Source: an uncultured Acidobacteriota bacterium
GTDB taxonomy: Bacteria > Acidobacteriota > Thermoanaerobaculia > Gp7-AA8
Assembly: GCA_963822445.1 (NCBI GenBank)
Contig: CAWGHO010000002.1
Location: 2,144,001 to 2,208,000, forward strand
Length of the DNA: 64,000 nucleotides
Direction: 5' to 3'
Positions 505 through 60,392 of this stretch are shown piece by piece; position 1 is the first letter of the stretch, and the number at the start of each line of letters is the position of its first letter. The position numbers and the translations under genes were made by a program. A model generated the notes under the pieces. It was not told where the DNA came from, did not search any database, and worked only from the letters and a program-made list of their open reading frames with translations.

Positions 505-701
505 GGCTAACTACTGCCAGGAGCTGCCGCGGCCCGGCTTCGGTCCGCCGGCCGAGCCGGCTGCTGTTTCGCCAGCGTGACGGCGTCACGGCGGTTGCAG
601 GTCGGCAGGCGTTGCATGCAACTTCTCGCCGGCAACCGCCGCGCCGCTCCAGCTTCGGCACGTGGGCCCTGGCCGCGCAGCTCAGGCGATAGACGTTCGG
701 C
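505..701 (+). repeat. attC site 1
   Basis: GGCTAAC...GTTCGGC, L boxes GAGCTG/CAGCTC. Confidence 0.9.
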
Positions 702-5260: not shown

Positions 5261-5923
5261 GTGCCGTCGTGGTGGATCACCGGTTTGGTGCTTCTCCTGT
5301 GTGTCGCGCAGCCGTTGCAAGCGTGCTCTTGCGGTGACCGCCCAAAGGCCGCGAAGGTCTTGTCATCTCACGCTGTATTTGACGGGACGGTCGTGTCCTC
5401 TCGACCCTTCATCGATCGATCAGACGACTACTGGTACGTGCTCGAGGAATGGACGTTTCAGGTGCATAGGAGTTGGACACAAGGAGTCCAAGGCGATGTC
5501 GCTATTCGTGCCTATCCGCATAACTGTGGCGTCTGGTTTGAGAACGGTGAGCGCGCAATTGTTGTCGCTGTCAATCGCGAAAGGCGCACACTCGGTGCGT
5601 TCAAGTGTGCCTATCCTCGCGAGAATGTTGACGTGTTGAACGCGGACCGTCTGTAGGGGCCGGCTTCGTTCCGCACCGACGGCCCGGTACGGAAAAGGAG
5701 AATCGCGCGTATCGTTAATGTGGCTCGGCGCTTGGTTCTTCACCTCATCGCGGATATCCACAACTGGATCGTTCGCTCCGGTCTTCGTGGCCGCGGCTAC
5801 GGCACTGTCATTGCTTGGGCGATAGCGACATGCGTGCTCTTCGCTATCTTGGTCGTCATTCTATCGTTTCGGCGACTGCGAGGTCGCGACAAGAATGAGC
5901 CGCCTTCCATGGCAGCCGGCTAA
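5261..5923 (+). pseudogene. TIMP/NTR-like secreted membrane-anchored protein interrupted by an in-frame TAG (5654-5656)
   Basis: Signal peptide, then 'ACSC...AVFDGTVV...CGVWF'; the same frame continues after the TAG to a C-terminal TM helix and stops in R''. Confidence 0.6.
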
Positions 5924-6117
5924 CTACTGCCAGGAGCTGTCGGCGGGCCGTTCGCCGCGCCCGGCGCTGAAGCGCCTCGTTCAGCGTGGACTGGCCGGCG
6001 GCACGCCGGCCGACATGCTCTCGCGCCGCTCGTCGCGGCGCGAACACTGCAGCCGTCGCGCCGCGTGACCCGCTCGCATGCGGGGCCTCGCCGCAGCTCA
6101 GGCGATAGACGTTAGGC
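5918..6117 (+). repeat. attC site 6
   Basis: GGCTAAC...GTTAGGC. Confidence 0.9.
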
Positions 6118-6189
6118 CGTCCTGTCCACAACGCTACGCGTCCTTCGGGCTTTCGGATGATCTCTATCATTGACGCGATCTGCGCGTAT

Positions 6190-6520
6190 CCCCCTCGCAG
6201 TTGACGACATCGCAAGCTTGCGGGCCGCGAGCAGCAAGACGCGCCTCCCGCATGCCCAGGTGTGCAGGCGGTCCTTCACACCCGCCCGCCACGCGCGGTA
6301 GACCGCCTGCACACCTGGGCATCACAACCGCCCGGCGCACGCTCGTCGCGGCCCTGATTTCACGCGCCGCCCACCCTCGCGCGTCGAACTCACGAATGCG
6401 TCCGTGTCACGGCGGTTGCACGTCGCTCCCGCCGATCGGTCGTTAGTCGCGGCAACCGCCGCGCCACGGTGGGGAGCGTGAATTCGACGCACTTCCACCC
6501 CGGTTGCGCTGCTCCCACCC
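6190..6520. repeat. Structured cassette-leader element, copy 1
   Basis: Conserved in 7 cassettes; perfect 22-bp stem 6252-6273/6301-6322 around a conserved loop. Confidence 0.85.
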
Positions 6521-6611
6521 CGCTCAATCGTTAGCCCGACCAAGAAGAATATGCGAGACGTGTCCCTCCAACCCATAGCACGGGCACCGAAGAGATGCGG
6601 AGGAAAAAGCA

Positions 6612-6896
6612 ATGCCATACACAGCAAAGCAACTTGCGAAGGAAGTGGCAAGCGATCCAGCGCTTGCTGCGAGGATCCAGCAGAACCCGGCGCAGGAAAT
6701 CGCAAATGCGGCAACGCCGCCGCCGCTGAGCGAAGCGACATACAAGATCGTCGTCATCATCCTTGGGCTGGCACTGCTCATCGCGCTTGGCGCTGCCATC
6801 TACCTGAAAGGCGATGTGTCCGATTTCATCGTCGCGGTAGGCTCCGGCGCACTGGGAGCACTCGCCGGCCTTCTGGCTCCGTCGCCAACACAGTAG
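6612..6896 (+). CDS. Small two-TM membrane protein
   Basis: GGAGG RBS; two hydrophobic helices. Confidence 0.75.
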   Translation: MPYTAKQLAKEVASDPALAARIQQNPAQEIANAATPPPLSEATYKIVVIILGLALLIALGAAIYLKGDVSDFIVAVGSGALGALAGLLAPSPTQ

Positions 6897-6968
6897 GGCG
6901 GTACCAGCGCTCCAGACGCGTCGTCGGGGTCGTTGATCTACTCCGGTGGCGTGCTACCGTGCGTAAGT

Positions 6969-7277
6969 GTGAGTCGCAAGAGCCTCAGTCTGCTCGCTCT
7001 CCTTCTTCTTACCACCTGCGCTACAACGCCCGATTTGAAGAGTCGCATGGACGCGCTGATCGGGAGAAACATTTCAGACGTCATAGCGGAACGCAAGGTG
7101 TACCCCGACTCGTCAGACGTGCTGCCGAATGGCAACACCGTTTACCGGTTCGCGTCCGGCTCCGGGGGAACGGTTGATCGGTACGGCAACGTCACATCAA
7201 ACGTTTGTAGGGTCTGGTTAGAGTCGAGGCCCGACGGAATTATCGTGAGGTACCGGTACGAGAATTGCCGAGATTAA
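6969..7277 (+). CDS. Putative lipoprotein
   Basis: 'SRKSLSLLALLLLTTC' signal with Cys; TGcTACCGT upstream. Confidence 0.65.
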   Translation: MSRKSLSLLALLLLTTCATTPDLKSRMDALIGRNISDVIAERKVYPDSSDVLPNGNTVYRFASGSGGTVDRYGNVTSNVCRVWLESRPDGIIVRYRYENCRD

Positions 7278-7315
7278 ACCGCAAACCGTCGTTTCATAGC
7301 TGTTTTTGCATCGCG

Positions 7316-7514
7316 GCCTAACTACTGCCAGAAGCTGGCACGGCCCGGCTTCGGTCCGGCGGCCGAGCCGCCTCGGCCGAACAGTACCGTCGCGGGCGTC
7401 ACGCTAGCTGCAGGTCGCTCCCGCCGAGTGAATCGTTAGTCGCGGCAGCTAGCGTGCCGCGACGGCTTCGGTACGTGGGCCTTGGCCGTGCAGCTTAGGC
7501 GATAGACGTTAGCC
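7316..7514 (+). repeat. attC site 7
   Basis: GCCTAAC...GTTAGCC. Confidence 0.9.
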
Positions 7515-7534
7515 GGACCGAATATCATCATCGA

Positions 7535-8665
7535 ATGGAACGTCACATTCTCCACCGCCTTCTGTTAGCCAAGTTCTTCATTCAAGACGCCCAGCGCGCG
7601 GCGAAAACGAGCAGCAACGACTTGGCTCTTTCTCGCGTTGTAGTGCATCTTCACGACGCAATCGATAACCTGCTCGGTGCCGTGGCGACGCAACGGCAAG
7701 TTCGTGTCGGCGCGCGCGACGCGATGATGGATGTATTCGCGAAGCTCACGACGGCAGGTCATCTCTCCGTTGGCCGCACAGAACTGGAACAGCTAAATGC
7801 CATGCGAAATGCGATCAAGCACCATGGCGTGCCTCAGAATGCCGCAGCGGTGATCGCCCTACTGCCTGCTCTTAACGACTTCAGCAGTAAGCTGTCAGTA
7901 GAAACGTTTGGTGTTTCCCTCGAAGCCGTCAGTTTGGCCGACCTGATCGAAGACGAGACCACACGAGATGAACTTGGGGCCATTCAAGGCCTGATCAGCA
8001 CTGGCGATTTCAAAACAGCTCTCGATAAGCTTGGCCTCTTACGCTTTCAGCGTCTTCAGGCCCACAGCCTACGGATGATCGCCGTCCTAAAGAAGCACAT
8101 GCAAAAGCTCGAGCTTCGTGATCAGGTGCTGGTCTTTCCCAAAGAAGATCGCGCTGAGACCAAGCTCGAATGCCTGGAATTGGGTATAAACCCAGACGAA
8201 CTTACTCGCTTTGAATGGCTCACGCCCAAGTACGGCTATCGGGATATGGAGACCGAGACGCTCATAGCAAAGCGTGAGGGTCTCTTCTGGCATCACCGTA
8301 ACTGGACCTTTGAGAACGCTATGTTTTGCTTCAACTTTCTTGTGAGCTATTTTGCCGCGAAGCAGAGAACACCGTACACGTCTTCGGTGTATCGGCGCGA
8401 CTTCAAACTGAACGAGATCGCATTCATCCGGCCATCGAATCTCGTGAGCCATGACGGAACGGTCCGCCGCGCGTATCTGGCAGGTGAGTGTGTCAATTGC
8501 TGGTCGATGGACCTTGTGGATGGGGAGTGGCAAAACCACGACGAGGCAACCGCGCGCGTGCGCATCTACGAAGTTGACGGCTCGACGATTGACGGACATG
8601 TTGTGAAAGCCGACGTTACCGTCGGGCCTGACTTCGAGGAGATGTTCGATCAACCCGCCGGCTAA
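7535..8665 (+). CDS. HEPN-like domain protein
   Basis: 376 aa; N-terminal 'HLHDAIDNLL' and 'RNAIKH' (RX4H); stop codon in R''. Confidence 0.7.
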   Translation: MERHILHRLLLAKFFIQDAQRAAKTSSNDLALSRVVVHLHDAIDNLLGAVATQRQVRVGARDAMMDVFAKLTTAGHLSVGRTELEQLNAMRNAIKHHGVPQNAAAVIALLPALNDFSSKLSVETFGVSLEAVSLADLIEDETTRDELGAIQGLISTGDFKTALDKLGLLRFQRLQAHSLRMIAVLKKHMQKLELRDQVLVFPKEDRAETKLECLELGINPDELTRFEWLTPKYGYRDMETETLIAKREGLFWHHRNWTFENAMFCFNFLVSYFAAKQRTPYTSSVYRRDFKLNEIAFIRPSNLVSHDGTVRRAYLAGECVNCWSMDLVDGEWQNHDEATARVRIYEVDGSTIDGHVVKADVTVGPDFEEMFDQPAG

Positions 8666-11130: not shown

Positions 11131-11421
11131 GGACTCGGCACGAAGAGGTAGGCCCGACTTCCATTTACGCGTTGGCAGTCGCACCGACCGAAGCGGCGGA
11201 GCCGCGCGCCAAGGCGTCCGCCACAATTGTTCGTCGTGGTACCCGCCCATCCGCCGGCTCGTCCCACGTGCAGCGCGCGCGAAACACATTCTTTCGTAGG
11301 CCGGTCGCAATCGCCGCGATTGCCGCGATCCCCGCCGGCCTGTCGGCCGAGCACGCATTCCGCGTCCGTCACCATTCGGCGCGCGCGCTGCTCCCAAGTG
11401 CGCAAAGTTATGCGTGTGGCC
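11131..11421. repeat. Gene-less cassette family, copy 1 (candidate ncRNA or structured DNA)
   Basis: ~290 bp, 10 related copies, no reading frame conserved across copies; appears identical to 38145-38435. Confidence 0.85.
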
Positions 11422-11611
11422 GCCCAACAACTCACAGCAGCTGTCGCGGCCCGGCTTCGGCTCGGCGGCCGAGCCGCCTAGGCCGAACAGTACCGGCGCG
11501 GCGTCACGCCGGCTGCAGTTCGGTTCATTCGTTAATCGCCGGCAGCCGGCGCGCCGCGCTGCCGTAGCCACGCGGGCCCTGGCCGCGCAGCTGAGTGAGA
11601 TGACGTTGGGC
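11422..11611 (+). repeat. attC site 11 (subtype of gene-less cassettes)
   Basis: GCCCAACAACTCACAGCAGCTG...CAGCTGAGTGAGATGACGTTGGGC. Confidence 0.9.
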
Positions 11612-11943
11612 GGACGAAACTCCATCGTTGCCAGCGTCGGAATACCTATGAACGTAGATGGACCGTTGTCGGATCATGCTCGCTCAACGCATGGCTGTTC
11701 TAGCCGTGAGGCGGTCGATCATGGATCCGCCTCGCGCGGCCGTTTTCGAGCGGCGACGGCGCGGTGTGGTTGAGCGGTTCTGTCGTCGATCCTCGGCGCT
11801 ATTCGCAAAGGATTCGATGTGCGTGTCGAACCTTGCCTGCCAGTCGGGGTCAGTCCTGAAGGTGACCAAGTAGACGCTCATCCGTTCCGACTTGCTCGCC
11901 CAGGAAGCGCCGTGCGCCGGTTGGCGTTAGAATGTCGAGCGAC

Positions 11944-13590: not shown

Positions 13591-13787
13591 GGCTAACTAC
13601 TGCCAGAAGCTGGCACGGCCCGGCTTCGGTCCGGCGGCCGAGCCGCCTACATTCTCTCCAGCTTGGTGGCGTCACGGCGGTCGCAGTTCGGCAGGCGTTG
13701 CACGCAACTTCTCGCCGGCAACCGCCGCGCCGCTCAGGCTTCGGCACGCGGGCCCTGGCCGTGCAGCTTAGGCGATAGACGTTAGGC
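13591..13787 (+). repeat. attC site 13
   Basis: GGCTAAC...GTTAGGC. Confidence 0.9.
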
Positions 13788-13902
13788 CGACGTACTCACA
13801 TTAGGGTGGCGGCGAGCTCTCTATGAAGCTCCGCAGTTGTGCGTCGCGCGTCGAAATTGTCGGCAATCCGTCCGTGGCATCGTCGTGCTTCGCGGCACGA
13901 TT

Positions 13903-14240
13903 CCCCCTCGCAGCTGACATCGCCTCAAGAGTGCGGGCCGCGAACAGCAAAACGCGCCACCCGCATGCGCAAGCGTTCAGTCGGTCCCTTCACGCCCTCC
14001 CACCACCCGCGGTAGACCGACTGAACGCTTGCGCATCACGCCCACCCGGCGCACGCTCATCGCGGCCCTGGCATCGACGCCCCTCCCGCCGACGCGCGTC
14101 GAACTCACGGATGCGCGCCGTGACACGGCGGTCGCAGATCGCTCCAGCCGACGGGTCGTTCGTCGCGGCAACCGCCGCGCCCCGGGCAGGGGAGCGTGAA
14201 TTCGACGCGCTCACACCCGTACCGACGCCGCTCCCGCCCC
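13903..14240. repeat. Structured cassette-leader element, copy 2
   Basis: Perfect 22-bp stem 13965-13986/14015-14036. Confidence 0.85.
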
Positions 14241-18297: not shown

Positions 18298-18589
18298 GGA
18301 CTCGGCACTGCATCAGCGTAGGACGGACATCCATTTACGCGTTGGCAGTCGCACCGGCCGAAGCGGCAGAGCCGCGCGCCAAGGCGTCCGGCACAATTTT
18401 AGTCGTGGTACCCACCCTTCCCGCCGGCTTGTCGCACGTGCAGCGCGCGCGGACGCACGATTCGCGTAGCGAGTGACTACAGTAACTCAAGACGCAGCGG
18501 CAAAGCGGGCCTTCGGCCACGCGCGCTCCGCGCCATGCACCATTCGGCGCGCGCGCTGCTTCCAAGCGCGCAAAGTCATGCGTGTGGCC
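18298..18589. repeat. Gene-less cassette family, copy 2
   Basis: Homologous to 11131-11421; subtype B interior. Confidence 0.85.
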
Positions 18590-18778
18590 GCCCAACAACT
18601 CACAGCAGCTGTCGCGGCCCGGCTTCGGCCCGGCGCTGAAGCGCCTGGGCCGAACAGTACCGGCGCGGCGGCACGCCGGCCGCAATTCGGTTCATTCGTT
18701 AATCGCCGGCAGCCGGCGCGCCGCGCTGCCGTAACCACGTGGGCCCTGCCCGCGCAGCTGAGTGAGATGACGTTAGCC
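18590..18778 (+). repeat. attC site 17 (gene-less subtype)
   Basis: GCCCAAC...GTTAGCC. Confidence 0.9.
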
Positions 18779-18904
18779 CGACGAACGACTGCGCTCAGAC
18801 AGAGCCGCCACCCGACACGTACTGCATCGGGTTCGCTTGCGCCCTGAACCTTGGAAGAGATCGCAACTTCGCTTGGCGCTAGACTTCCCGTACTATTCGA
18901 TGTC

Positions 18905-19847: not shown

Positions 19848-19919
19848 GGTCGTCTGCACGAACGCTCCGCGTCCATGTAGATTTTTACTACGAGGACTCG
19901 TCCTTCAATCGGCACGCTT

Positions 19920-20260
19920 CCTCCGCGCAGCTGAATCCATCGCCAGGTTGCGGGGCCGCGACCAGCAAAGCGCGCCTGCCCGCACGCGCAGTTGTGCTCC
20001 ATTCGGCCCCTTCACACCCGCCCGCCACCCGCGGTAGGCCGAATGGAGCACAACTGCGCTTCACACCCACCCGGCGCATGCTCGTCGCGGCCCTGACGGA
20101 GCGCACCACCCGCCCGCGCGCGACGAACTCCTGAGTGCATCGGTGTCACCGCGGTTGCAGGTCCGCTCCCGCCGACCTGTCGGTGGTCGCGGCAACCGCG
20201 GCGCCACCGATGCGCTCAGGAATTCGCCGCGCTTACAGCCGGCGACCGCTGCTCCCGCCC
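19920..20260. repeat. Structured cassette-leader element, copy 3
   Basis: Perfect 23-bp stem 19986-20008/20037-20059. Confidence 0.85.
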
Positions 20261-20442
20261 GTGTCTTTTGGGGCGGCGCTTACATGCGAATCCCATTTTC
20301 GGCCGCTGTCGCTAGGCGGACGAAGGAACATCCGGTCACAGCGCTTCTACCAGATATCGAACATGCAGCTCAGCGCGGTGTAGACTTACCGACGTGCGTA
20401 CCGTCAAGATCGAGACATTACGCGCAAGGCGGAGAACATAGC

Positions 20443-21390
20443 GTGTCTCCAAAACTATCATTCTTCATCAGTTACGCACACGCCGACCGATCACTTGCGG
20501 TAGCTATTGCCGATGAACTTGAGCGTGCTGGTATGCGCGTGTGGGTCGATGAAGGCGAGTTGCGCGCTGGGGATTCGATCGTAGAGCGCATCGCCGATGC
20601 TGTCGACCAGGTAGACTTTGTCGTAGCGCTCGTCACGCGACGCGCTGTAGCCTCGAATTGGTGCAAGAAGGAATTGGCGCTCGCGATACAGGGAGGCTTG
20701 CGCGAGGGCAGCGTCCGATTGTTGCCATTGCGGGTTGACGACGTTGAGATGCCTCCGTCGTTACGTGATCTTTTCCACCTTCATGTCGATTCTCGGAACC
20801 CTATGCCCGTCGTACGTAAGCTCGTCGCCGACGCGTGGTCGCATTTTCGTGAACAGCAGTTGGATTCATGCTTTCTCGGCAGAGTTGTGTCAGTTTTACA
20901 ACCGACAACAACTCTCAGCGCCGAGCGACAGCAAGCACTAAAGCTTGCTCTGCGTAGCAATGACGACGACTACAACTCGGCCGCGCGCGCTGAAAAATTG
21001 CTAGCGAAGGATCTAAGTGTGCCAGCCGCTGAAATTCTTTACGAAGATGCATTGGATGACGCATTAACCGATCGTAACGCTGGCTTCGGCGTATCGGGGC
21101 TCGCAAGGCTTGGTCCGCTGGCCGCGCCGTGGCTGTATCAAATGCTGAGCCATGACGATGATCGTGTCGTCCGTGACGCTTTTGACGCTCTCGCGCATAC
21201 ACGTTCGATAATTTTCTCCGATATGCGGGAATACCTGCTGGATACCATCGATGCTATTGTTAAACACGCGGATTGGTCCGCCTGCGCAAAGAGATTGAAA
21301 GAGTCGTGCAGTGACGAAGATAGAACGGACAGGCTAGCGTTCATGCTGGGCTACGCAAGCGACTACCGCAGGAACTTTGCCAAAGGCTAA
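20443..21390 (+). CDS. TIR domain protein with helical (HEAT-like) C-terminus
   Basis: GGAG RBS, GTG start; 'FFISYAHAD...VWVDE...GDSI...SNWCKKEL'. Confidence 0.85.
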   Translation: MSPKLSFFISYAHADRSLAVAIADELERAGMRVWVDEGELRAGDSIVERIADAVDQVDFVVALVTRRAVASNWCKKELALAIQGGLREGSVRLLPLRVDDVEMPPSLRDLFHLHVDSRNPMPVVRKLVADAWSHFREQQLDSCFLGRVVSVLQPTTTLSAERQQALKLALRSNDDDYNSAARAEKLLAKDLSVPAAEILYEDALDDALTDRNAGFGVSGLARLGPLAAPWLYQMLSHDDDRVVRDAFDALAHTRSIIFSDMREYLLDTIDAIVKHADWSACAKRLKESCSDEDRTDRLAFMLGYASDYRRNFAKG

Positions 21391-22777: not shown

Positions 22778-23067
22778 GGACTCCGCACGAAGACGTAGGC
22801 CCGACTTCTATTTTCGCGCTGGCAGTCGCACCGACTGAAGCGGCAGAGCCGCGCGCCAAGGCGTCCGCCACAATTGTCCGTCGTGGCTCCCGCCCGTCCA
22901 CCGGCTTGTCGCGCCTGCAGCGCGCGCGAAGCTGATTTTTCGTGGGTTTGTCGCAATCTCCGCGAAAGTCACCATCCAAGCCGGCCTGTCGGCCGAGCAC
23001 GCATTCCGCGTCCATCACCATTCGGCGCGCGCGCTGCTCCCAAGCGCAGAAGCTTATGCGTGTGGCC
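22778..23067. repeat. Gene-less cassette family, copy 3
   Basis: Homologous to copy 1. Confidence 0.85.
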
Positions 23068-23257
23068 GCCCAACAACTCACAGCAGCTGTCGCGGCCCGG
23101 CTTCGGCCCGGCGGCCTAGCCGCCTAGGCCGAACAGTACCGGCGCGGCGTCACGCCGGCTGCAGTTCGGTTCGTTCGCTAATCGCCGGCAGCCGGCGCGC
23201 CGCCCTGCCGTAGCCACGCGGGCCCTGGCCGCGCAGCTGAGTGAGATGACGTTGGGC
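23068..23257 (+). repeat. attC site 21 (gene-less subtype)
   Basis: GCCCAAC...GTTGGGC. Confidence 0.9.
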
Positions 23258-23306
23258 GGACGCAGGCACGCTCGTCTATACTCTGTCCGGCGAAAGGAAC
23301 CATCGG

Positions 23307-24786: not shown

Positions 24787-24884
24787 CGACAAACATGCCT
24801 TAGCGTTGATGCGCGCAATCTATGAAGCTCTGCGCACTTGCACGTCGAGTCCTTCTTCGCATGGTCGTTCCTTCGCGGCACGTT

Positions 24885-25219
24885 CCCCCTCGCAGCTGAC
24901 CGTGTCGCGAGAAGGCGGGCCGCGACCAGCAAAACGCGCCTCCCGCATGCGCAAGCGTTCAGCTGGTCCCTTCACACCCGCCCACCACCCGCGGTAGACC
25001 GGCTGAACGCTTGCGCATCACAACCACCCGGCGCACGCTCGTCGCGGCCCTGACTTCGCGCAACACCCTCCCTCGCGCGTGGAACTCACGAATGCGTGCG
25101 TGACACGGCGGTTGCACATCGCTCATGCCGGAGGTCACCTTCGTCGCGGCAACCGCCGCGCCACGGCAGAGGAGCGTGAATTCGACGCGCTCCCACCCGT
25201 GCCGACGCTGCTCCCGCCC
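24885..25219. repeat. Structured cassette-leader element, copy 4
   Basis: 22-bp stem with one T-G pair. Confidence 0.85.
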
Positions 25220-25247
25220 TGGAAGCCAGGAGATACCGCAAGCGACT

Positions 25248-26216
25248 TTACTCGTGCGTCTCACGAGGCGGAGGTCGAAGCAACACAGACATCATCTTCT
25301 CGAAGGTGTATGGAAGCGCAAGGCCCGCCGCGCCTACCACTAGGACGGCGAGTAACGAATAAACGACCGTCGACGCCACGTCGCCCTTTTCCGAGAATGC
25401 GATGACCTGGCTCGTTAGCCATTGAACGATTGCAGCCACAGCACTACCTACTGCCACCAACATTCCTACGGATCGCACACTTCTCGTCACCCGGATGGAC
25501 TTGGCCGATTCGGCGCGCGCGAGAAGAAACTCCTGGAACCTCTGCCGCATCACCAATGCTAGCCAACCGCTCAACAAGAAGTGGTAGTACACGAGATCGT
25601 GCTTGGTCCTCGGCGACGGCCAGTCGAACTCTGAGCGATTGTAAAACTCAAACTTTGTATCGATAAAACTCACATCAAATTGTTGAAAGACGGCCGCTGT
25701 GCGATTCGCGCGTTCTTCGACAGAGCCGTAGATATGAAAAAGTTCCTCGGATGTGTATGAGTACAGGATCATCCGCGTTTCCGAAGCGAGGAATGTTCCC
25801 ATTGACCGGCGACGGGAGGAGTCGACACGTCCATCGCCCACGTACGCGTGCAACGCGCGAGAGAGATCCGCCGTGGTGAGGATTCGGTCGCGCACGTCAT
25901 CTTCGTAGGGCTTATCGCGGCCCTGTGAGTGCGCGGCTGCGTTGGCCTCCTTGAGAGCCTCATCGAGCACATATCCGTAGTCAGCGACGACCAGGTCGAT
26001 ACCGCCGCGCACGGCTACGGCAATCTCGTCTAAGGTCTGTTGCGAGATGAGGAAACCCTTGTCGCTCTTTTCAACGCAAATTTGTACGGGTAGCAGGTCC
26101 AGTCGCCATTCGTCGCCGGCGAATTGATGCTCAATCAGCTTCATTCGGCCATGAATACGGTCCAGTAACTTTTGGTCATCCTCCAGAAGGAGAACGCGAT
26201 AACTCTGCAACGCCAT
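25248..26216 (-). CDS. Receiver-like domain + 2-TM protein
   Basis: 'RVLLLEDD...IDLVVADY'; two C-terminal TM helices. Confidence 0.7.
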   Translation of the reverse strand: MALQSYRVLLLEDDQKLLDRIHGRMKLIEHQFAGDEWRLDLLPVQICVEKSDKGFLISQQTLDEIAVAVRGGIDLVVADYGYVLDEALKEANAAAHSQGRDKPYEDDVRDRILTTADLSRALHAYVGDGRVDSSRRRSMGTFLASETRMILYSYTSEELFHIYGSVEERANRTAAVFQQFDVSFIDTKFEFYNRSEFDWPSPRTKHDLVYYHFLLSGWLALVMRQRFQEFLLARAESAKSIRVTRSVRSVGMLVAVGSAVAAIVQWLTSQVIAFSEKGDVASTVVYSLLAVLVVGAAGLALPYTFEKMMSVLLRPPPRETHE

Positions 26217-26291
26217 AATCACGGAACGATAGCATACGGTGTGTCGCGCGGTGGGAACCGATGTCGTCCGGAGGACCAGAAGCGGTCAGCG

Positions 26292-28762: not shown

Positions 28763-29051
28763 GGACCCGGCACGAAGAGGTAGGCCCGACTTCCATTTAC
28801 GCGTTGGCAATCGCACCGACTGAAGCGGCGGAGCCGCGCGCCAAGGCGTCCGCCACCATTTTTCGTCGTGGTACCCGCCCGCCCGCCGGCTTGTCGCACT
28901 TGCAGCGCGCGCGGAGCAGCGATTTGCGTAGGCCGGTGCCCACAAAACTCGAGACGCAACGACGTAGCGGGCCTTCGGCCACGCGCGCTCCGCGTCGTGC
29001 ACTATTCGGCGCGCGCGCTGCTCCCAAGCGCGCAAAGTTGTGCGTCTGGCC
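28763..29051. repeat. Gene-less cassette family, copy 4
   Basis: Subtype B interior. Confidence 0.85.
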
Positions 29052-29240
29052 GCCCAACAACTCACAGCAGCTGACGCGGCCCGGCTTCGGCCCGGCGCTG
29101 AAGCGCCTTGGCCGAACAGTACCGGCGCGGCGGCACGCCGGCCGCAAATCGGTTCATTCGTTAATCGCCGGCAGCCGGCGCGCCGCGCTGCCATAGCCGC
29201 GCGGGCCCTGGCCGCGCAGCTGAGTGAGATGACGTTAGGC
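29052..29240 (+). repeat. attC site 26 (gene-less subtype)
   Basis: GCCCAAC...GTTAGGC. Confidence 0.9.
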
Positions 29241-29501
29241 CGACCCATCAAAATTCGCGTGGCGGCACGCTACAATGAAACTCCGCTTACTTGCACGACC
29301 ATCGCAAGCAATCCGCGCTGGCACACACAGCGCTCTCTCGGCGCGAGGCTGGTCCAGTCACTTGCATTGCATGTCTCCGTCTAGCCTAGCATGGCGCAAG
29401 GTGAGGTGCGGCGGCTACCGTCTTTCGCTCTGGCGCGCTGGAGGACAGCCTCTCTCTTCCCTCTTCCGCTTCGACCTCCATTATGCTGTCATAGCTGCGC
29501 G

Positions 29502-33679: not shown

Positions 33680-33970
33680 GGACCCGGCACGAAGACGTAG
33701 GCCCGACTTCCATTTTCGCGCTGGCAGTCGCACCGACTGAAGCGGCAGAGCCGCGCGCCAAGGCGTCCGCCACAATCGTTCGTCGTGGTACCCGCCCGGC
33801 CGCCGGCTTGTCGCAAGTGCAGCGCGCGAAACATGGTTCTCGTCGGCAGCCGGCCACAATCGCCTCAAGAGCCAAAATCCACGCCGGCCTGTCGGCCGAG
33901 CACGCGTTCCGCGTCCCTCACCATTGGGCGCGCGCGCTGCTCCCAAGCGCGCAAAGTTTTGCGTGTGGCC
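33680..33970. repeat. Gene-less cassette family, copy 5
   Basis: Homologous to copy 1. Confidence 0.85.
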
Positions 33971-34160
33971 GCCCAACAACTCACAGCAGCTGTCGCGGCC
34001 CGGCTTCGGCCCGGCGGCCGAGCCGCCTGGGCCGAACAGTACCGGCGCGGCGTCACGCCGGCTGCAGATCGGTTCGTTCGTTAATCGCCGGCAGCCGGCG
34101 TGCCGCGCTGCAGTAGCCACGCGGGCCCTGGCCGCGCAACTGAGTGAGATGACGTTGGGC
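33971..34160 (+). repeat. attC site 31 (gene-less subtype)
   Basis: GCCCAAC...GTTGGGC. Confidence 0.9.
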
Positions 34161-34452
34161 GGACTCGGCACGAATAGGTAGGCCGGACTTCTATTACGCG
34201 TTGGCAGACGCACCGACTGAAGCGGCGGAGCCGCGCGCCAAGGCGTCCGCCACAATCGTTCGTCGTGGCTCCCGCCCGTCCGCCGGCTCGTCGCACGTGC
34301 AGCGCGCGCGAAGCATGATTCTCGTAGGCAGCCGGCCATAATCTCCGCGAGATCCAAGATCCGAGCCGGCCTTGCGGCCGAGCACGCGTTCCGCGTCCGC
34401 CATCATTCGGCGCGCGCGCTGCTCCCAAGCCCGGAAGGTCATGCGTGTGGCC
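34161..34452. repeat. Gene-less cassette family, copy 6
   Basis: Tandem with copy 5 but not identical. Confidence 0.85.
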
Positions 34453-34642
34453 GCCCAACAACTCACAGCAGCTGTCGCGGCCCGGCTTCGGCCCGGCGCT
34501 GAAGCGCCTAGGCCGAACAGTACCGGCGCGGCGGCACGCCGGGCCGCAAATCGGTTCATTCGTTAATCGCCGGCAGCCGGCGCGCCGCGCTGCCGTAGCC
34601 GCGTGGGCCCTGGCCGCGCAGCTGAGTGAGATGACGTTAGGC
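34453..34642 (+). repeat. attC site 32 (gene-less subtype)
   Basis: GCCCAAC...GTTAGGC. Confidence 0.9.
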
Positions 34643-34670
34643 TGATATCCCGAGATTCACGGTCGAGCTA

Positions 34671-37183: not shown

Positions 37184-37477
37184 GGACTCGGCACGAAGAA
37201 GGTAGGCCCGACTTCCATTTACGCGTTGACAGTCGCACCGACCGAAGCGGCGGAGCCGCACGCCAAGGCGTCGGCCACAATTTTTCGTCGTGGCACCCGC
37301 CCGCCCGCCGGCTTGTCGCACGTGCAGCGCGCGCGAAGCATGATTTTCGTCGCCAGCCGGCCACAACATCCTCGAGACGCATCAGCGAGGCCGGCCTGTC
37401 GGCCGAGCACGCATTCCGCGTCCGGCACCATTTGGCGCGCGCGCTGCTCCCAAGCGCGCAAGGTTATGGGTGTGGCC
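37184..37477. repeat. Gene-less cassette family, copy 7
   Basis: First of three tandem copies. Confidence 0.85.
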
Positions 37478-37666
37478 GCCCAACAACTCACAGCAGCTGT
37501 CGCGGCCCGGCTTCGTCCCGGCGCTGAAGCGCCTGGGCCGAACAGTACCGGCGCGGCGGCACGCCGGCCGCAATTCGGTTCATTCGTTAATCGCCGGCGG
37601 CCGGCGCGCCGCGCTGCCGCAGCCACGCGGGCCCCGGCCGCGCAGCTGAGTGAGATGACGTTGGGC
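37478..37666 (+). repeat. attC site 35 (gene-less subtype)
   Basis: GCCCAAC...GTTGGGC. Confidence 0.9.
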
Positions 37667-37954
37667 GGACCCGGCACGAAGACGTAGGCCCGACTTCTAT
37701 TTTCGCGTTGGCAATCGCACCGACTGAAGCGGCGGAGCCGCGCGCCAAGGCGTCCGCCCCAATTCTGGTCGTGGCACCCGCCCGTCCGCCGGCTTGTCGC
37801 ACGTGCAGCGCGCGCGAGGCGTGGTTTTGCGTAGGCCGGTGACCACAAACCTCGAGACGCAGCGACGAAGCGGGCCTTCGGCCACGCGCGCTCCGCGTCA
37901 TGCACGATCGGGCGCGCGCGCTGCTCCCAAGCGCGGAAAGTTATGCGTGTGGCC
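37667..37954. repeat. Gene-less cassette family, copy 8
   Basis: Subtype B interior. Confidence 0.85.
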
Positions 37955-38144
37955 GCCCAACAACTCACAGCAGCTGACGCGGCCCGGCTTCGGCCCGGCG
38001 GCCGAGCCGCCTAGGCCGAACAGTACCGGCGCGGCGGCACGCCGGCCGCAAATCGGTTCATTCGTTAATCGCCGGCAGCCGGCGCGCCGCGCTGCCGCAG
38101 TCGCGTGGGCCTTGGCCGCGCAGCTGAGTGAGATGACGTTGGGC
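37955..38144 (+). repeat. attC site 36 (gene-less subtype)
   Basis: GCCCAAC...GTTGGGC. Confidence 0.9.
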
Positions 38145-38435
38145 GGACTCGGCACGAAGAGGTAGGCCCGACTTCCATTTACGCGTTGGCAGTCGCACCG
38201 ACCGAAGCGGCGGAGCCGCGCGCCAAGGCGTCCGCCACAATTGTTCGTCGTGGTACCCGCCCATCCGCCGGCTCGTCCCACGTGCAGCGCGCGCGAAACA
38301 CATTCTTTCGTAGGCCGGTCGCAATCGCCGCGATTGCCGCGATCCCCGCCGGCCTGTCGGCCGAGCACGCATTCCGCGTCCGTCACCATTCGGCGCGCGC
38401 GCTGCTCCCAAGTGCGCAAAGTTATGCGTGTGGCC
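38145..38435. repeat. Gene-less cassette family, copy 9
   Basis: Appears identical to 11131-11421. Confidence 0.85.
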
Positions 38436-38625
38436 GCCCAACAACTCACAGCAGCTGTCGCGGCCCGGCTTCGGCTCGGCGGCCGAGCCGCCTAGGCCGA
38501 ACAGTACCGGCGCGGCGTCACGCCGGCTGCAGTTCGGTTCATTCGTTAATCGCCGGCAGCCGGCGCGCCGCGCTGCCGTAGCCACGCGGGCCCTGGCCGC
38601 GCAGCTGAGTGAGATGACGTTAGGC
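38436..38625 (+). repeat. attC site 37 (gene-less subtype)
   Basis: GCCCAAC...GTTAGGC. Confidence 0.9.
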
Positions 38626-38681
38626 TGAACGCTCCAAGAGCGCACACCTCTCTCGACCTCACGATCTATTAAGCTGAGCCA

Positions 38682-42934: not shown

Positions 42935-43226
42935 GGACTCGGCACGAAGAGTAGGCCGGACTTCCATTGACGCGTTGGCAGTCGCACCGACTGAAGCGGC
43001 AGAGCCGCGCGCCAAGGCGTCCGCCACAATTGTTCGTCGTGGTTCCCGCCCATCCGCCGGCTTGTTGCACGTGCAGCGCACGCGAAACATGATTTTCGTC
43101 GGCAGCCGGCCACAATCTCCGCGAGAGCCACCCTCCACGCCGGCCTGGCGGCCGAGCACGCATTCCGCGTCCGCCACGATTCGGCGCGTGCGCTGCTCCC
43201 AAGCGCGGAAAGCTATGCGTGTGGCC
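42935..43226. repeat. Gene-less cassette family, copy 10
   Basis: Compensatory change GCAGCGCACGC/GCGTGCGCTGC in the clamp stem. Confidence 0.85.
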
Positions 43227-43415
43227 GCCCAACAACTCACAGCAGCTGACGCGGCCCGGCTTCGTCCCGGCGCTGAAGCGCCTGGGCCGAACAGTACCGG
43301 CGCGGCGGCACGCCGGCCGCAGATCGGTTCATTCGTTAATCGCCGGCGGCCGGCGCGCCGCGCTGCCGCAGCCACGCGGGCCCTGGCCGCGCAGCTGAGT
43401 GAGATGACGTTAGCC
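43227..43415 (+). repeat. attC site 41 (gene-less subtype)
   Basis: GCCCAAC...GTTAGCC. Confidence 0.9.
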
Positions 43416-43761
43416 GGTCGGAATTACTCTTATCGCACATTGCAACGGCGAGGGGACGAGTTCAAGCCATGTGAGTGCGCGAGAGTCGTCTTCTTACGCA
43501 TGCACCTAGGATCGTGTTGCGTAGCTATGCTCGGTGCGTGGCATTCCATACGCACCACGTCATTAGCTACAAGCGCCAGTCCGTCAGAGCTTTAGCTCGC
43601 TCGTGCGCCGATGGACGACACTCCGGCCCGCCTCGCTAAGTGGCATCTTAGCTGCGACGCCCAGCATGCATCAGCGACGCCTCTGGGTATCTGGTATCCT
43701 GCCGTCTCTACCCGATAGGCAGCTGGAGCGGCGCGATCCGGCATCCGGACGGAGCGATCGC

Positions 43762-44509: not shown

Positions 44510-44682
44510 AGACCGGCGGACGCGGAGCGCAACCGACGCACAAGTTCGCGGAACGCAACCACAGCGCGCGTGGCATGATCGATCGCAACTGCTCACTATC
44601 GTTGCGCTCCACCAGTCCACCGGCATGGCTAACTTTCATCATTCCGTCGTCGCGACGTCCGGTCGATCCCATAATAGACATT

Positions 44683-45007
44683 CCCCCTGCAGCTGACAGC
44701 ATCGCAAGATTGCGGGCCGCGACCAGCCAAAGTGCGCCCGCCCCCCGCGCCGTTGTGCAGTAGACCCCTTCACACCCGCTCCACCACCCGCGGTAGGCCT
44801 ACTGCACAACGGCGCACCCTCCCGGGCGCCAGCTCGTCGCGGCCCTGAATGTGCGCATCCACCCGACCTCGCGCGTCGAACTCACGAATTGATCCGTGTC
44901 ACGCGGTTGCAGATGGCTTCCTCCGGCGAATCATCAGTCGCCGCAACCGCGTGCCACGGGAAGACCGTGAATTCGACGCGCTCACACCCGGGAGATCGCT
45001 GCCCCCC
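44683..45007. repeat. Structured cassette-leader element, copy 5
   Basis: 20-bp stem with one mismatch around the conserved loop. Confidence 0.8.
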
Positions 45008-45097
45008 GACCCGCGAGAGCGACACGTCGTGATCAGGCCCGATGTGTCGGCGTGATCTAGATGCTCCAGGTTGTAAACCACCAGTTTCGGTATGAAC

Positions 45098-45421
45098 TTA
45101 GACATTCGCGGGGCGCAAAACCACCAGTTCGGTCACTCCGGAAGTGACCTTTGCCAATTCGGAAGTGACCTTTGCCACTTCGGAAGTGACCTTTGCCACT
45201 TCGGAAGTGACCCTTGCCACTTCGGAAGTGACTTGGGCCACTTCGGAAGTGACCTTTGCCAATTCGGAAGTGACTTGGGCCACTTCGGAAGTGACCTTTG
45301 CCACTTCGGAAGTGACCTTGGCCACTTCGGAAGTGACCACGGCCACTTCGCTAGTGACCTTGGCCACTTCGGAAGTGACCTTGCATTCAACTCTGAGACC
45401 GACGACGGACATGCCGCGCAT
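45098..45421 (-). CDS. Heptad-repeat (VTSEVAK)n coiled-coil peptide
   Basis: Repeat variation is mostly synonymous or conservative in this frame (TCC>AGC Ser, GCA/GCC Ala). Confidence 0.55.
   Translation of the reverse strand: MRGMSVVGLRVECKVTSEVAKVTSEVAVVTSEVAKVTSEVAKVTSEVAQVTSELAKVTSEVAQVTSEVARVTSEVAKVTSEVAKVTSELAKVTSGVTELVVLRPANV
45137..45385. repeat. Tandem repeat, 12 x 21 bp (TTCGGAAGTGACCTTTGCCAC)
   Basis: Units start every 21 nt from 45137 to 45368. Confidence 0.95.
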
Positions 45422-45430
45422 TGAATGGCT

Positions 45431-45627
45431 GGCTAACTGCTGCCAGCAGCTGACAGCGGCCCGTTTGCCGCTCCCGGGGCTGAAGCCCCTTTTTCCTCCC
45501 GAGACGAACGGCGACATGCCGCTTGCAGATCGCTCCCGCCGACTGGTCGTTAGTCGCGGCAACCGGCCTGCCGCGCGAACCGCACGCGCGCGGGGGCTCG
45601 CTGCAGCTGAGGCGACGTACGTTAGGC
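45431..45627 (+). repeat. attC site 43
   Basis: GGCTAAC...GTTAGGC. Confidence 0.9.
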
Positions 45628-53924: not shown

Positions 53925-54635
53925 ATGAAAGTGTTCATTAGCCATGCAGCTGCCGATCGTGAAATTGCAGAGCGGATTGCCGCGGTGCTCGGCAGAGATG
54001 GTATGGAGGTGTTCACCTACTGGCATGACGTTGCCGCCGGCGAGGCGATTCGCGCACGCGTCTTCGAAGCCATCAATTCAAGTGACGCCGTTATTGTTCT
54101 TGTGTCAAGTTCCAGCGAACGAAGCATTGCGGTGTCAGAAGAGACGTCGGTTGCTCTGTATTCAGACCGCCACCTGCCAGTAAAAGTGATCCCCGTTATC
54201 GTGGAGGCAGGCATTCAGGTGCCGGTCATGCTTCGCGACATTCGAGGAGTAGATTTGAGCTCGCCTGATCGCTGGCAACGGGGTATCGATGACCTCCTAG
54301 CTGCGCTTCACATACCTTCGCGTGAGTCGTATCGCGATGAGTGGGACTATATCCGTGCGTCAAGGGATGCCCTTGAGGTTGAGAAGTTGGAATATGAATT
54401 CGCTCGGCGGAAGCACGGGCTGGAAGCGATCGTTGGGGTAATGTCGCGGGCAACAACGGCAGGTGGCCTGCTTGTAGCTGGCGTCGCCATCTGGTTGTCT
54501 AGCGAACTATCGCTTGTTGCATTCTCTCGGGCAGCGCCCGATATTGTTAAGATTTTCTTGACTCTCTTGGGTCCCGTCGCGGCGTTCGCATTCGGTTACT
54601 ACTTTGGCACGCGCTCTAAGGCGGATAGGCCATGA
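53925..54635 (+). CDS. TIR domain + 2-TM protein
   Basis: 'MKVFISHAAAD...VSEE'; C-terminal TMs ending 'GYYFG'. Confidence 0.85.
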   Translation: MKVFISHAAADREIAERIAAVLGRDGMEVFTYWHDVAAGEAIRARVFEAINSSDAVIVLVSSSSERSIAVSEETSVALYSDRHLPVKVIPVIVEAGIQVPVMLRDIRGVDLSSPDRWQRGIDDLLAALHIPSRESYRDEWDYIRASRDALEVEKLEYEFARRKHGLEAIVGVMSRATTAGGLLVAGVAIWLSSELSLVAFSRAAPDIVKIFLTLLGPVAAFAFGYYFGTRSKADRP

Positions 54636-55202: not shown

Positions 55203-55274
55203 CGTCCTGGCCACAGCGCTTCGCGTCCTTGTCACCTTCTCGTCGAATTTCGCGTCTATCAATCTGTTCGCCTT

Positions 55275-55602
55275 CCCCCTCGCAGCTGACAGCATCCCGA
55301 GGTTGCGGGCCGCGACCAGCAAAACGCGCTTCCCGCATGCCCAAATGTGCCGTCGGTCCCTTCTCGCACACCGCCCGCGGTAGACCGACGGCACACTTGG
55401 CCATCACACCCGCCCGGCGCACGCTCATCGCGGCCCTGACAGCACGCACCGCCGCCCTCGCGCGCCGAACTCACGAATGCATCCGTGTCACGGCGGTTGC
55501 GGTCTCTCCAATGACTTACTCCTCGGTCGCGGGCAACCGCCGCGCCACGGGCCAGAGCGTAAATTCGGCGCGCTCACACCCCGCTTGCGCTGCTCCCATC
55601 CC
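55275..55602. repeat. Structured cassette-leader element, copy 6
   Basis: 22-bp stem with two mismatches. Confidence 0.8.
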
Positions 55603-57748: not shown

Positions 57749-57820
57749 GGTCGTCTGCACGAACGCTCCGCGTCCATGTAGATTTTTACTACGAGGACTC
57801 GTCCTTCAATCGGCACGCTT

Positions 57821-58152
57821 CCTCCGCGCAGCTGAATCCATCGCCAGGTTGCGGGGCCGCGACCAGCCTGCCCGCACGCGCAGTTGTGCTCCATTCGGCC
57901 CCTTCACACCCGCCCGCCACCCGCGGTAGGCCGAATGGAGCACAACTGCGCTTCACACCCACCCGGCGCATGCTCGTCGCAGCCCTGACGGAGCGCACCA
58001 CCCGCCCGCACGCGACGAACTCCTGAGTGCATCGGTGTCACCGCGGTTGCAGGTCCGCTCCCGCCGACCTGTCGGTGGTCGCGGCAACCGCGGCGCCACC
58101 GATGCGCTCAGGAATTCGCCGCGCTTACAGCCGGCGACCGCTGCTCCCGCCC
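57821..58152. repeat. Structured cassette-leader element, copy 7 (duplicate of copy 3 with a 9-bp deletion)
   Basis: Near-identical to 19920-20260. Confidence 0.85.
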
Positions 58153-58334
58153 GTGTCTTTTGGGGCGGCGCTTACATGCGAATCCCATTTTCGGCCGCTG
58201 TCGCTAGGCGGACGAAGGAACATCCGGTCACAGCGCTTCTACCAGATATCGAACATGCAGCTCAGCGCGGTGTAGACTTACCGACGTGCGTACCGTCAAG
58301 ATCGAGACATTACGCGCAAGGCGGAGAACATAGC

Positions 58335-59282
58335 GTGTCTCCAAAACTATCATTCTTCATCAGTTACGCACACGCCGACCGATCACTTGCGGTAGCTATT
58401 GCCGATGAACTTGAGCGTGCTGGTATGCGCGTGTGGGTCGATGAAGGCGAGTTGCGCGCTGGGGATTCGATCGTAGAGCGCATCGCCGATGCTGTCGACC
58501 AGGTAGACTTTGTCGTAGCGCTCGTCACGCGACGCGCTGTAGCCTCGAATTGGTGCAAGAAGGAATTGGCGCTCGCGATACAGGGAGGCTTGCGCGAGGG
58601 CAGCGTCCGATTGTTGCCATTGCGGGTTGACGACGTTGAGATGCCTCCGTCGTTACGTGATCTTTTCCACCTTCATGTCGATTCTCGGAACCCTATGCCC
58701 GTCGTACGTAAGCTCGTCGCCGACGCGTGGTCGCATTTTCGTGAACAGCAGTTGGATTCATGCTTTCTCGGCAGAGTTGTGTCAGTTTTACAACCGACAA
58801 CAACTCTCAGCGCCGAGCGACAGCAAGCACTAAAGCTTGCTCTGCGTAGCAATGACGACGACTACAACTCGGCCGCGCGCGCTGAAAAATTGCTAGCGAA
58901 GGATCTAAGTGTGCCAGCCGCTGAAATTCTTTACGAAGATGCATTGGATGACGCATTAACCGATCGTAACGCTGGCTTCGGCGTATCGGGGCTCGCAAGG
59001 CTTGGTCCGCTGGCCGCGCCGTGGCTGTATCAAATGCTGAGCCATGACGATGATCGTGTCGTCCGTGACGCTTTTGACGCTCTCGCGCATACACGTTCGA
59101 TAATTTTCTCCGATATGCGGGAATACCTGCTGGATACCATCGATGCTATTGTTAAACACGCGGATTGGTCCGCCTGCGCAAAGAGATTGAAAGAGTCGTG
59201 CAGTGACGAAGATAGAACGGACAGGCTAGCGTTCATGCTGGGCTACGCAAGCGACTACCGCAGGAACTTTGCCAAAGGCTAA
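58335..59282 (+). CDS. TIR domain protein, duplicate of 20443-21390
   Basis: Identical translation in the ORF track. Confidence 0.88.
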   Translation: MSPKLSFFISYAHADRSLAVAIADELERAGMRVWVDEGELRAGDSIVERIADAVDQVDFVVALVTRRAVASNWCKKELALAIQGGLREGSVRLLPLRVDDVEMPPSLRDLFHLHVDSRNPMPVVRKLVADAWSHFREQQLDSCFLGRVVSVLQPTTTLSAERQQALKLALRSNDDDYNSAARAEKLLAKDLSVPAAEILYEDALDDALTDRNAGFGVSGLARLGPLAAPWLYQMLSHDDDRVVRDAFDALAHTRSIIFSDMREYLLDTIDAIVKHADWSACAKRLKESCSDEDRTDRLAFMLGYASDYRRNFAKG

Positions 59283-59353
59283 TGGTTGTCGTGTCGCTGC
59301 GTCACAGCCAGAGACCAAGGGTGCAGGGTTACGCAACCGCCGGGACTCGCCGC

Positions 59354-60289: not shown

Positions 60290-60392
60290 CTGGGTTCCTT
60301 CCTGTCAACCTGTTCGTTTGAGAGCTTTCAGATTGACGAAAGTCGCCCGGATGGACAACCCGCTTCAAGGAACAACGTCCTGACACATCACA
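59359..60392 (-). mobile_element. IS481-family insertion sequence inserted in an attC R'' box
   Basis: TGT...ACA ends, imperfect 24-bp terminal IRs (..TCAGGACGTTGTTCC), 6-bp TSD CCTAAC at 59353-59358 and 60393-60398; empty site at 21460. Confidence 0.95.

Follow-up and report, generated by a model that had tools for sequence, protein, structure and literature searches.

The 64,000-nt stretch analysed here (the window; C2:2144001-2208000) is part of the chromosomal integron of a soil acidobacterium, whose 6.0-Mb genome is assembled in three contigs (C1, C2 and C3). An HMM trained on 39 attC sites from the window and run against the whole genome returned 125 matches, 100 of them near full length, and the main integron array at C2:2120564-2226592 holds 87 near-full-length sites, all on the + strand except one. 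The intI gene lies just upstream of this array on the same strand (C2:2118113-2119048; TIGR02249, 456 bits against a cut-off of 265). Long attC sites and non-coding cassettes are already known, and the 55 attC sites of the window, which begin with GCCTAACTACTGCCAG and end with AGGCGATAGACGTTAGGC, measure 187-200 nt, typically about 197 nt. They thereby exceed the usual range of 57-141 bp that is quoted in a passage of PMC5371416. Their centre is a single hairpin of 50-62 nt in 44 cases; in the remaining 11, here called type B, the interior has been swapped for two other hairpins while the base of the stem is retained. Since these 11 sites carry a different, two-hairpin centre on the same stem base, the apex is dispensable for attC.

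Within the window a single attC is inverted (61449-61645). Outside the main array the HMM found 35 matches, 13 of them near full length, on all three contigs, and clusters such as C1:1228039-1231765, C2:479968-493880 and C3:1333654-1357416 have no integrase that we could see beside them. An IS481-family insertion sequence (59349-60391; 311-aa transposase at 59354-60289, minus strand) adjoins the R'' end of the attC at 60392-60587, and three more copies of this element, with 99.7-100% identity, lie at C2:2211841, C2:2220424 and C1:1226992. The window also contains 11 copies (the query and ten matches, 85-99.6% identity) of an ORF-less cassette of about 484 nt, with coordinates 11131-11615, 18298-18785, 22778-23262, 28763-29244, 33680-34164, 34161-34645, 37184-37670, 37667-38148, 38145-38628 and 42935-43423, including tandem runs of two and three; the attC of this cassette has divergent ends (GCCCAACAACTCACAGCAGCTG ... 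GAGATGACGTTGGGC) and a short-apex hairpin.

The element with which we are concerned, termed the leader, is a conserved non-coding core of about 340 nt that contains two long hairpins, H2 and H3 (Table 1). The genome holds eight copies according to a leader HMM, all within the array, and BLAST of 6118-6640 against the window returned six further full copies at 74-83% identity, together with shorter matches, 46-62 nt long and 76-89% identical, that cover just the hairpin and mostly fall within attC sites. The inner stem of H2 varies in sequence between copies, whereas its loop of about 28 nt stays constant. In H3 an outer stem of about 15 bp is followed by a 7x7 internal loop, a 5-bp stem and, at the top, the hairpin that is shared with attC sites. 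Three single-stranded TCACACCC motifs are also conserved in the leaders. No ORF is, and any reading frame is disrupted by the indels of 1-6 nt that distinguish the copies. In copy 8 an additional stretch of about 150 nt separates the start of the cassette from the leader core; two versions of CCCCC(T/A)CGCAG flank it, which suggests a partial duplication or an insertion.

Table 1. Leader copies, their hairpins and the attC features compared with them (window coordinates unless a contig is given).
Feature	Position	Strand	Basis and remarks
attC module	585..645	+	within attC 505-701; stem the same as in leader copy 1 (100% identity)
Upstream attC, type B centre	5918..6117	+	supplies the R' GTTAGGC at which the cassette with the leader begins
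Leader copy 1, conserved core	6186..6520	+	leader HMM, E 1.2e-97; starts 68 nt past the attC that ends at 6117
Hairpin H2, copy 1	6222..6354	+	enclosing stem GGGCCGCGA/TCGCGGCCC; self-complement; covariation helices 1-4
H2 inner stem, copy 1	6252-6322	+	about 22 bp around the conserved loop of about 28 nt
Hairpin H3, copy 1	6380..6491	+	outer stem, 7x7 internal loop, CCGTG/CACGG, module; folds; covariation helices 5-6
Shared hairpin module, leader copy 1	6406..6465	+	apex of H3; exact arm motifs; CM; attC HMM
R'-type heptamer GTTAGCC	6530..6536	+	8-13 nt past the core of copy 1
Closing attC of the copy 1 cassette	7316..7514	+	centre 7398-7458, same apex class as the leader
attC module	13671..13731	+	within attC 13591-13787
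Leader copy 2	13898..14240	+	leader HMM; module 14122-14181
Leader copy 3	19915..20261	+	leader HMM; module 20145-20205, with the CCGCGG/CCGCGG change
Leader copy 4	24883..25220	+	leader HMM; module 25102-25162; cargo ORF 25248-26222 on the opposite strand
Leader copy 5	44678..45008	+	leader HMM; module 44898-44955; with copy 6 the most diverged in the genome
attC module	45513..45572	+	within attC 45431-45627; apex closest to those of leader copies 1-3
Leader copy 6	55272..55601	+	leader HMM; module 55487-55546
Leader copy 7	57816..58153	+	leader HMM; module 58037-58097; arose by recent duplication of the copy 3 cassette
Leader copy 8 (locus L018)	C2:2217885-2218090		outside the window

The fold of the leader is supported by covariation among 14 leader copies from eight genomes. 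The minimum-free-energy fold of the entire copy 1 gave copy-specific long-range pairing and was replaced by hand-defined helices, in which 87.8% of the cells pair. Changes on both sides were seen in 28 of the 69 pairs, as opposed to 11.5 +/- 2.2 after shuffling (none of 500 shuffles reached 28) and to 3-11 when the partner columns were slid. Three mismatches are conserved as well, namely a C.A in the outer stem of H3 (GTCGAAC/ATTCGAC, in 11 of 12 sequences) and a T/A.C and an A.C at the base of the hairpin, and the latter two are the same as those in attC sites. Structural conservation as strong as this implies that the leader element does something; the covariation as such fits RNA and DNA equally.

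The hairpin at the top of H3 is the part of the leader for which a preliminary description of this DNA had claimed identity with the central module of attC sites, and the arm motifs on which that claim was based are indeed where it had placed them. The first arm, GTCACGGCGGTTGCA, has exact matches at 585, 6406, 30429, 32542 and 44394, and with up to three mismatches it occurs 53 times, a number that none of 100 shuffles reached (3.6 +/- 1.8). The second arm, GGCAACCGCCGCGCC, matches exactly at 631, 6451, 13717, 14167, 25148, 32589 and 55532, and yields 82 matches against 10.5 +/- 3.5 in shuffles, none of which attained this value. The attC HMM aligns the module of copy 1 to its positions 70-149 (E 1.8e-9) and matches seven of the eight leaders solely via the hairpin (E 1.8e-9 to 1.5e-4, mainly positions 82-147), copy 5 being the only one that it missed. 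Conversely, the leader HMM matches attC sites only at its model positions of about 197-310, with three attC matches extending to 128-137, and with a covariance model built on the hairpin leader copy 1 obtains 77.6 bits, the best attC 77.9 bits. The attC at 45431-45627 has an apex with 88% identity to the apex of copy 1 (BLAST, 89% over 46 nt), in keeping with the likeness noticed earlier near 45530, and for copies 1-3 the identity to the nearest attC apex is 82-91%; the stem of copy 1 is 100% identical to the stems of two attC sites, one of which is that at 505-701.

When 24 attC and 13 leader hairpins were aligned, they proved to have in common a 14-bp stem with compensatory changes at seven of ten predicted pairs, and to agree in two conserved mismatches, a T.C found in 30 of the 37 sequences and an A.C found in 29. 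The covariation that had been reported for copy 3, where CACCGCGG...CCGCGGCG replaces the CACGGCGG...CCGCCGCG of the other copies, is a real compensatory change (CCGCGG/CCGCGG); copy 7 has it too, and since copy 7 is a recent duplicate of copy 3, the two represent one event. The homology of leader and attC hairpins by descent is thus well supported, and the claim of shared ancestry holds for the hairpin by virtue of the same 14-bp stem, the same T.C and A.C mismatches and a single attC apex subclass.

This homology is solid only in the hairpin. Outside the 60 nt, the comparison of flanks with attC was not significant (local-alignment z of at most 2.6, and for four of the six right flanks no better than chance). 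As in attC sites, the module is preceded at a distance of 61 nt by a colinear GTCGCGGCCC; this is borderline, its match having been reached by 6-16 of 300 shuffles in the four copies that have a 10-nt match. Homology to attC along the whole length was not found in H3 and the 3' half of the leader, where only HMM positions of about 82-147 align reliably. The leader module corresponds to the centre, or variable terminal structure, of the array's own attC sites, with a stem that covaries, an apex that varies and a fold that favours the bottom strand, but it sits on a different and longer outer stem, without R''/L'' boxes and with at most a vestigial R'.

Such a short, G+C-rich hairpin in many copies resembles REP/REPIN elements, and the preliminary description had named a generic, genome-wide REP-like repeat as the alternative to its own reading. 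That alternative does not hold. When the 6.0-Mb genome was searched with the hairpin covariance model and the 150 best first-look candidates out of about 10,500 were scored, 93 matches resulted, of which 81 fall in attC sites, eight in leaders and four at C1:507.6-508.7 kb. An independent stem-based scan gave 113, namely 73 in attC sites, eight in leaders and 32 others; nine of these others are true-looking copies at C1:504437-508655, and 23 are scattered across the genome, as a REP-like or chance palindrome might be, but lack the GTCAC...TTGCA signature. Copies of the module are therefore confined, within those best 150 candidates, to attC sites, leaders and one 4.3-kb locus, and the dispersal through intergenic regions that typifies REP/REPIN elements is absent. 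Together with arm-motif counts above every shuffle, the full identity of the copy 1 stem to two attC stems and the close apex matches, this makes it scarcely credible that the module is a generic REP/REPIN-like palindrome or a chance product of G+C-rich palindromes.

The C1 locus (L030, minus strand) comprises nine attC central hairpins with the attC right flank, partly in tandem at a spacing of about 125 nt, in G+C-rich non-coding DNA at a great distance from the integron, where the neighbouring genes encode a STAND NTPase, a 495-aa protein and a GHKL-type ATPase; it resembles a decayed cassette cluster. Because its copies match attC HMM positions 80-170, that is the hairpin and the right flank, they are tandem attC fragments. 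Flank motifs common to the leader and this locus were dismissed, the same G+C-rich 14-18-mers recurring with 1-3 mismatches 7-23 times elsewhere.

The two strands do not fold alike. In the hairpin alignment A.C pairs on the top strand, which are G.T on the bottom strand, occur 41 times and top-strand G.T pairs four times, while the leader outside its three conserved mismatches shows no strand bias (19 versus 15). With DNA parameters the bottom strand folds better in seven of seven H3 regions (that of copy 2 having been extracted too long, at 366 nt), in seven of seven H2 regions and in 84 of 100 attC sites, an advantage that may reflect the G-richness or composition of the bottom strand. H3 consequently has the character of an attC-like imperfect hairpin, with conserved mismatches and better folding of the bottom strand, subject to the same possible effect of composition. 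A G-quadruplex in the bottom-strand loop of H2 was considered by eye and dropped, since the G-runs are missing in copies 6 and 8.

All eight leaders start 67-205 nt past an attC, on the strand of that attC, and in this genome 422-2239 nt of cargo separate each leader from the attC that comes next. Only eight of the 87 cassettes bear a leader. The cargos are mutually unrelated: they encode a DUF3040-like small membrane protein, a 311-356-aa protein with no family assigned, a TIR-domain protein, a 324-aa protein on the opposite strand (copy 4), a 110-aa protein (copy 5) and a zinc-ribbon protein. The cargo lies on the strand of the leader in seven of the eight cases, and in copies 1, 5 and 6 the first ORF begins 61-92 nt past the core. 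Because the position is fixed and yet the cargos are unrelated and one of them is reversed, the place of the leader must be tied to the edge of the cassette and the orientation of attC, not to the gene. The cargos of copies 3 and 7 are 100% identical over 1198 nt. TIR-domain cassette proteins are encoded at 20143-21390, 58035-59282 and 53925-54635 (PF13676, E 6e-28 and 8e-22); the cassettes of the first two are duplicates 38 kb apart, whose leaders differ by a 10-nt deletion. The 110-aa cargo ORF of copy 5 (45128-45384) has internal tandem repeats, with self-matches of 86-90% at several offsets.

At the 5' side the leader has the boundary of a gene-less cassette, for it begins at the R' of the upstream attC. 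At the 3' side, an R'-type heptamer GTT[AGC]G[GC]C occurs within 100 nt of five of 21 distinct leaders (binomial P=0.0025, given a background chance of 0.047 per 100 nt, or 24 in 49,681 nt) and is absent over that distance from the other 16; in the relative G042 a leader copy has GTTAGGC on both sides. The leader further resembles a gene-less cassette in having no conserved ORF, paralogous copies in the array and close homologues only in related species. A complete 3' attC of its own and solitary occurrence were not found: none of the eight leaders here, and none at the loci from relatives and metagenomes, stands alone between two attC sites. When the cargo proteins of copies 2, 4 and 6 were searched in 35 genus genomes, two of the three had no homologues and the third gave nothing beyond weak zinc-ribbon hits in three genomes (E about 4e-6 to 6e-6), so that no leaderless version of these three cargos was found in the 34 other genus genomes, nor a leaderless paralogue in this one. 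With neither a stand-alone leader nor a leaderless version of the three cargos, independent mobility of the leader has never been seen.

As for H3 itself, the inverted core pair of an attC, R'' (RYYYAAC) with R' (GTTRRRY), was not recovered: no R'' partner was found in H3 or the 3' half of the leader, and no L boxes were found in the leader. The outer stem GTCGAAC/ATTCGAC was considered as an R box and rejected, the AAC being missing in the copies of three relatives (G042, G024b and G006).

The leader is not confined to this genome. It or its parts occur in eight of 35 genus genomes at E<=1e-15 and in none of 16 genomes of other families outside the genus. A leader-specific pattern matched 11 soil metagenome contigs, of which ten have the full leader. 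An R' core lies within about 110 nt of shown sequence upstream of the leader core in all eight metagenome loci that have upstream sequence (two further loci are cut by contig ends upstream), and these leaders usually open with CGTCC..GGCCACAACGCTCCGCG. The domains of the leader are separable, seeing that one relative has it without H2 (L014) and another keeps H2 and the outer stem of H3 with the hairpin degraded (L017).

With respect to the direction of descent, a tree of the module, built from 61 columns of 13 leader and 24 attC hairpins, groups the 13 leader hairpins with 11 attC hairpins of the apex class CGCTCC..CGTTAGTCGCG (support 90/87) and separates them from the remaining 13 attC hairpins. 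A single origin of the leader hairpins is neither shown nor excluded by it (3 changes), and we did not take it as proof of one origin, 61 columns being too few. The stem of copy 1 is fully identical to those of two attC sites and its apex is closest to that of a third, and stems and apices hence assort separately, which could mean gene conversion; such conversion has been proposed for 59-base elements in a section of PMC1382264. The preliminary description had also connected the shared hairpin with the making of attC sites and cassettes, a link that we find unsupported, since the leader hairpins fall inside the diversity of attC hairpins. It is true that de novo formation of cassettes is described as unexplained in parts of PMC5371416 and PMC8352920, and that the first cassette past the attI-side GTTAGGC (C2:2119405) also opens with a truncated leader-like sequence (..AACGCTCGGCGTCCTTG.. 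GCACGTTTCGCCCTCGCAGC ..CCCCTCGCGCGTCG), which is without both hairpins. That leaders are intermediates or by-products of attC and cassette genesis, with attC sites derived from leader-like elements, is nonetheless very improbable: the leader hairpins are nested in one attC subclass instead of being basal, few cassettes carry a leader, and the search of the genus for three of the cargos recovered none of them outside cassettes. We see no sign that attC sites arose from leaders. Given that its hairpins are nested in this way, that it starts at the attC crossover and that an R'-type core closes some of its copies, it is economical to suppose that the leader came from an attC-bearing gene-less cassette, and its copy of the hairpin is probably there because the element descends from an attC site.

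Based on its place at the cassette edge, the R'-type heptamers on its 3' side and the copy in G042 that is bounded by GTTAGGC, the explanation that we tentatively put ahead of the others, though with somewhat less than even confidence, takes the leader for a gene-less cassette that became welded to its neighbour, with H3 as a disabled attC derivative. The 60-nt hairpin would then be common to attC and leader by descent; H3 would be a former working attC that kept its central hairpin and lost its R''/L'' boxes, and would still fold in an attC-like manner, probably on the bottom strand and acting as single-stranded DNA. If H3 no longer served as a crossover site, leader and cargo would be excised and inserted as one cassette between the flanking canonical attC sites, and the leader would have been retained for some benefit to the cargo, for which expression control, of the sort exerted by the gene-less promoter cassettes of Vibrio, seems to us the most plausible candidate. 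Against this reading stand the flanks without significant similarity to attC, the failure to find R'' or L boxes, the 16 leaders that have no R'-type heptamer, the lack of stand-alone leaders and of leaderless cargos, and the disappearance of the strand bias outside the three conserved mismatches. In addition, covariation and the loops kept across species point to a structure that is at work, which is not what one expects of a decaying fossil.

The same structural evidence could perceivably be accommodated at the level of RNA, if the leader were a 5' untranslated leader, a small RNA, or a gene-less cassette whose promoter serves cargo lying a long way from Pc. Descent would still relate the hairpin to attC, with selection keeping the fold of the transcript. 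The covarying stems around conserved loops, with the constant H2 loop and the three single-stranded motifs, speak for this explanation, as do the prevalence of cargos on the leader's strand and the short distance to the first ORF in copies 1, 5 and 6, and gene-less cassettes in Vibrio arrays act as sense promoters according to a portion of PMC11014356. On the other hand, the cargo of copy 4 is reversed, and on the sense strand each of the three conserved mismatches reads A.C or C.A. Rfam gave no match at gathering score in the whole window, with only microRNA-type noise in 5900-6700 at E<=10, and 5900-7600 contained no sigma-70-like promoter and no intrinsic terminator. A putative ECF-type promoter in an arm of H3 was dropped by eye because its spacing does not fit. 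The leader thus matches no Rfam family and has no fixed same-strand relation to an ORF of the sort that would mark a structured cis-regulatory or small RNA, and we regard an RNA-level or promoter element as possible, yet appreciably less probable than a welded cassette. Because of the shared, bottom-strand-friendly mismatches and the reversed cargo, a role at the level of DNA may be ranked somewhat above one at the level of RNA.

One such role would be recognition. Were the hairpin an independent, portable module, a structure-specific site for IntI or for a host protein that binds single strands or hairpins, the same factor would act at attC and leader, and the leader would be an accessory or decoy site that influences how the attC located 67-205 nt upstream folds or enters synapsis. 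It is consistent with this that attC sites and leaders alike keep asymmetric mismatches, T.C and A.C, at fixed places in the stem, and so are the recurrence of the GTCAC / G(C/T)GCC stem base with its mismatches in the C1 locus, the assortment of stem and apex as separate pieces, the persistence of the H3 outer stem in the relative whose module is degraded (L017), and flanks that are not significantly homologous to attC. Against it, the type B sites swap the interior of the hairpin and keep only the base of its stem, the variable terminal structure of attC sites is not a known protein contact (PMC5371416), and leaders occur in only a small minority of the cassettes. We consider an independent recognition module doubtful, and its fuller form, whereby the hairpin would be a portable, structure-specific address for IntI or a host factor and leaders would be non-cleavable accessory sites controlling the folding, synapsis or excision of the upstream attC, decidedly unlikely on the sequences at hand.

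Among known systems, the Vibrio paralogous non-coding cassettes of Boucher et al. 2006 come close: as depicted in excerpts of PMC1382264, they too are ORF-less, present in several copies per array and have close homologues only in related species, with a conservation that suggests purifying selection or gene conversion. They are, by the same excerpts, complete cassettes with their own attC, whereas the leader is never alone and always has cargo before the next attC; the 484-nt ORF-less cassette of our window is, in contrast, a true cassette of this Vibrio kind as characterized there. With the gene-less promoter cassettes of Vibrionaceae (Blanco et al. 2024; PMC11014356, in part) the leader has in common that both are non-coding and lie just upstream of unrelated genes, deep in the array beyond Pc. 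It differs from them in that the sigma-70 scan of the region of leader copy 1 found no promoter, and in that neither a conserved two-hairpin fold nor an attC-derived hairpin is described in the sections of their main text covered here. The delta-attI-type cassettes of mobile integrons, as outlined in part of PMC12901181, share with the leader that both are boundaries of incomplete sites stabilising the order of neighbours; those are attI remnants in clinical class 1 integrons, whereas here we have a remnant of an attC centre in a chromosomal array that is conserved across species. The leader thus differs from attC centres, Vibrio non-coding cassettes and promoter cassettes in never being alone, in its conserved two-hairpin fold and in its copy of an attC centre, and in the full-text literature, supplementary files aside, we found no description of a conserved two-hairpin element fronting unrelated cassettes with such a copy.

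These findings extend integron biology to the Acidobacteriota, where little has been described, and they provide a defined 60-nt oligonucleotide and a 340-nt element for work on integrons. If the hairpin were a recognised module, the attC centre would have a function beyond folding, and if it were in addition a portable address, some cassettes would carry their own recombination regulator and attC centres would be exchangeable modules as opposed to passive spacers. If the leader is instead a gene-less cassette welded to its neighbour, large arrays would have a way to fix useful neighbours together by disabling the site between them.
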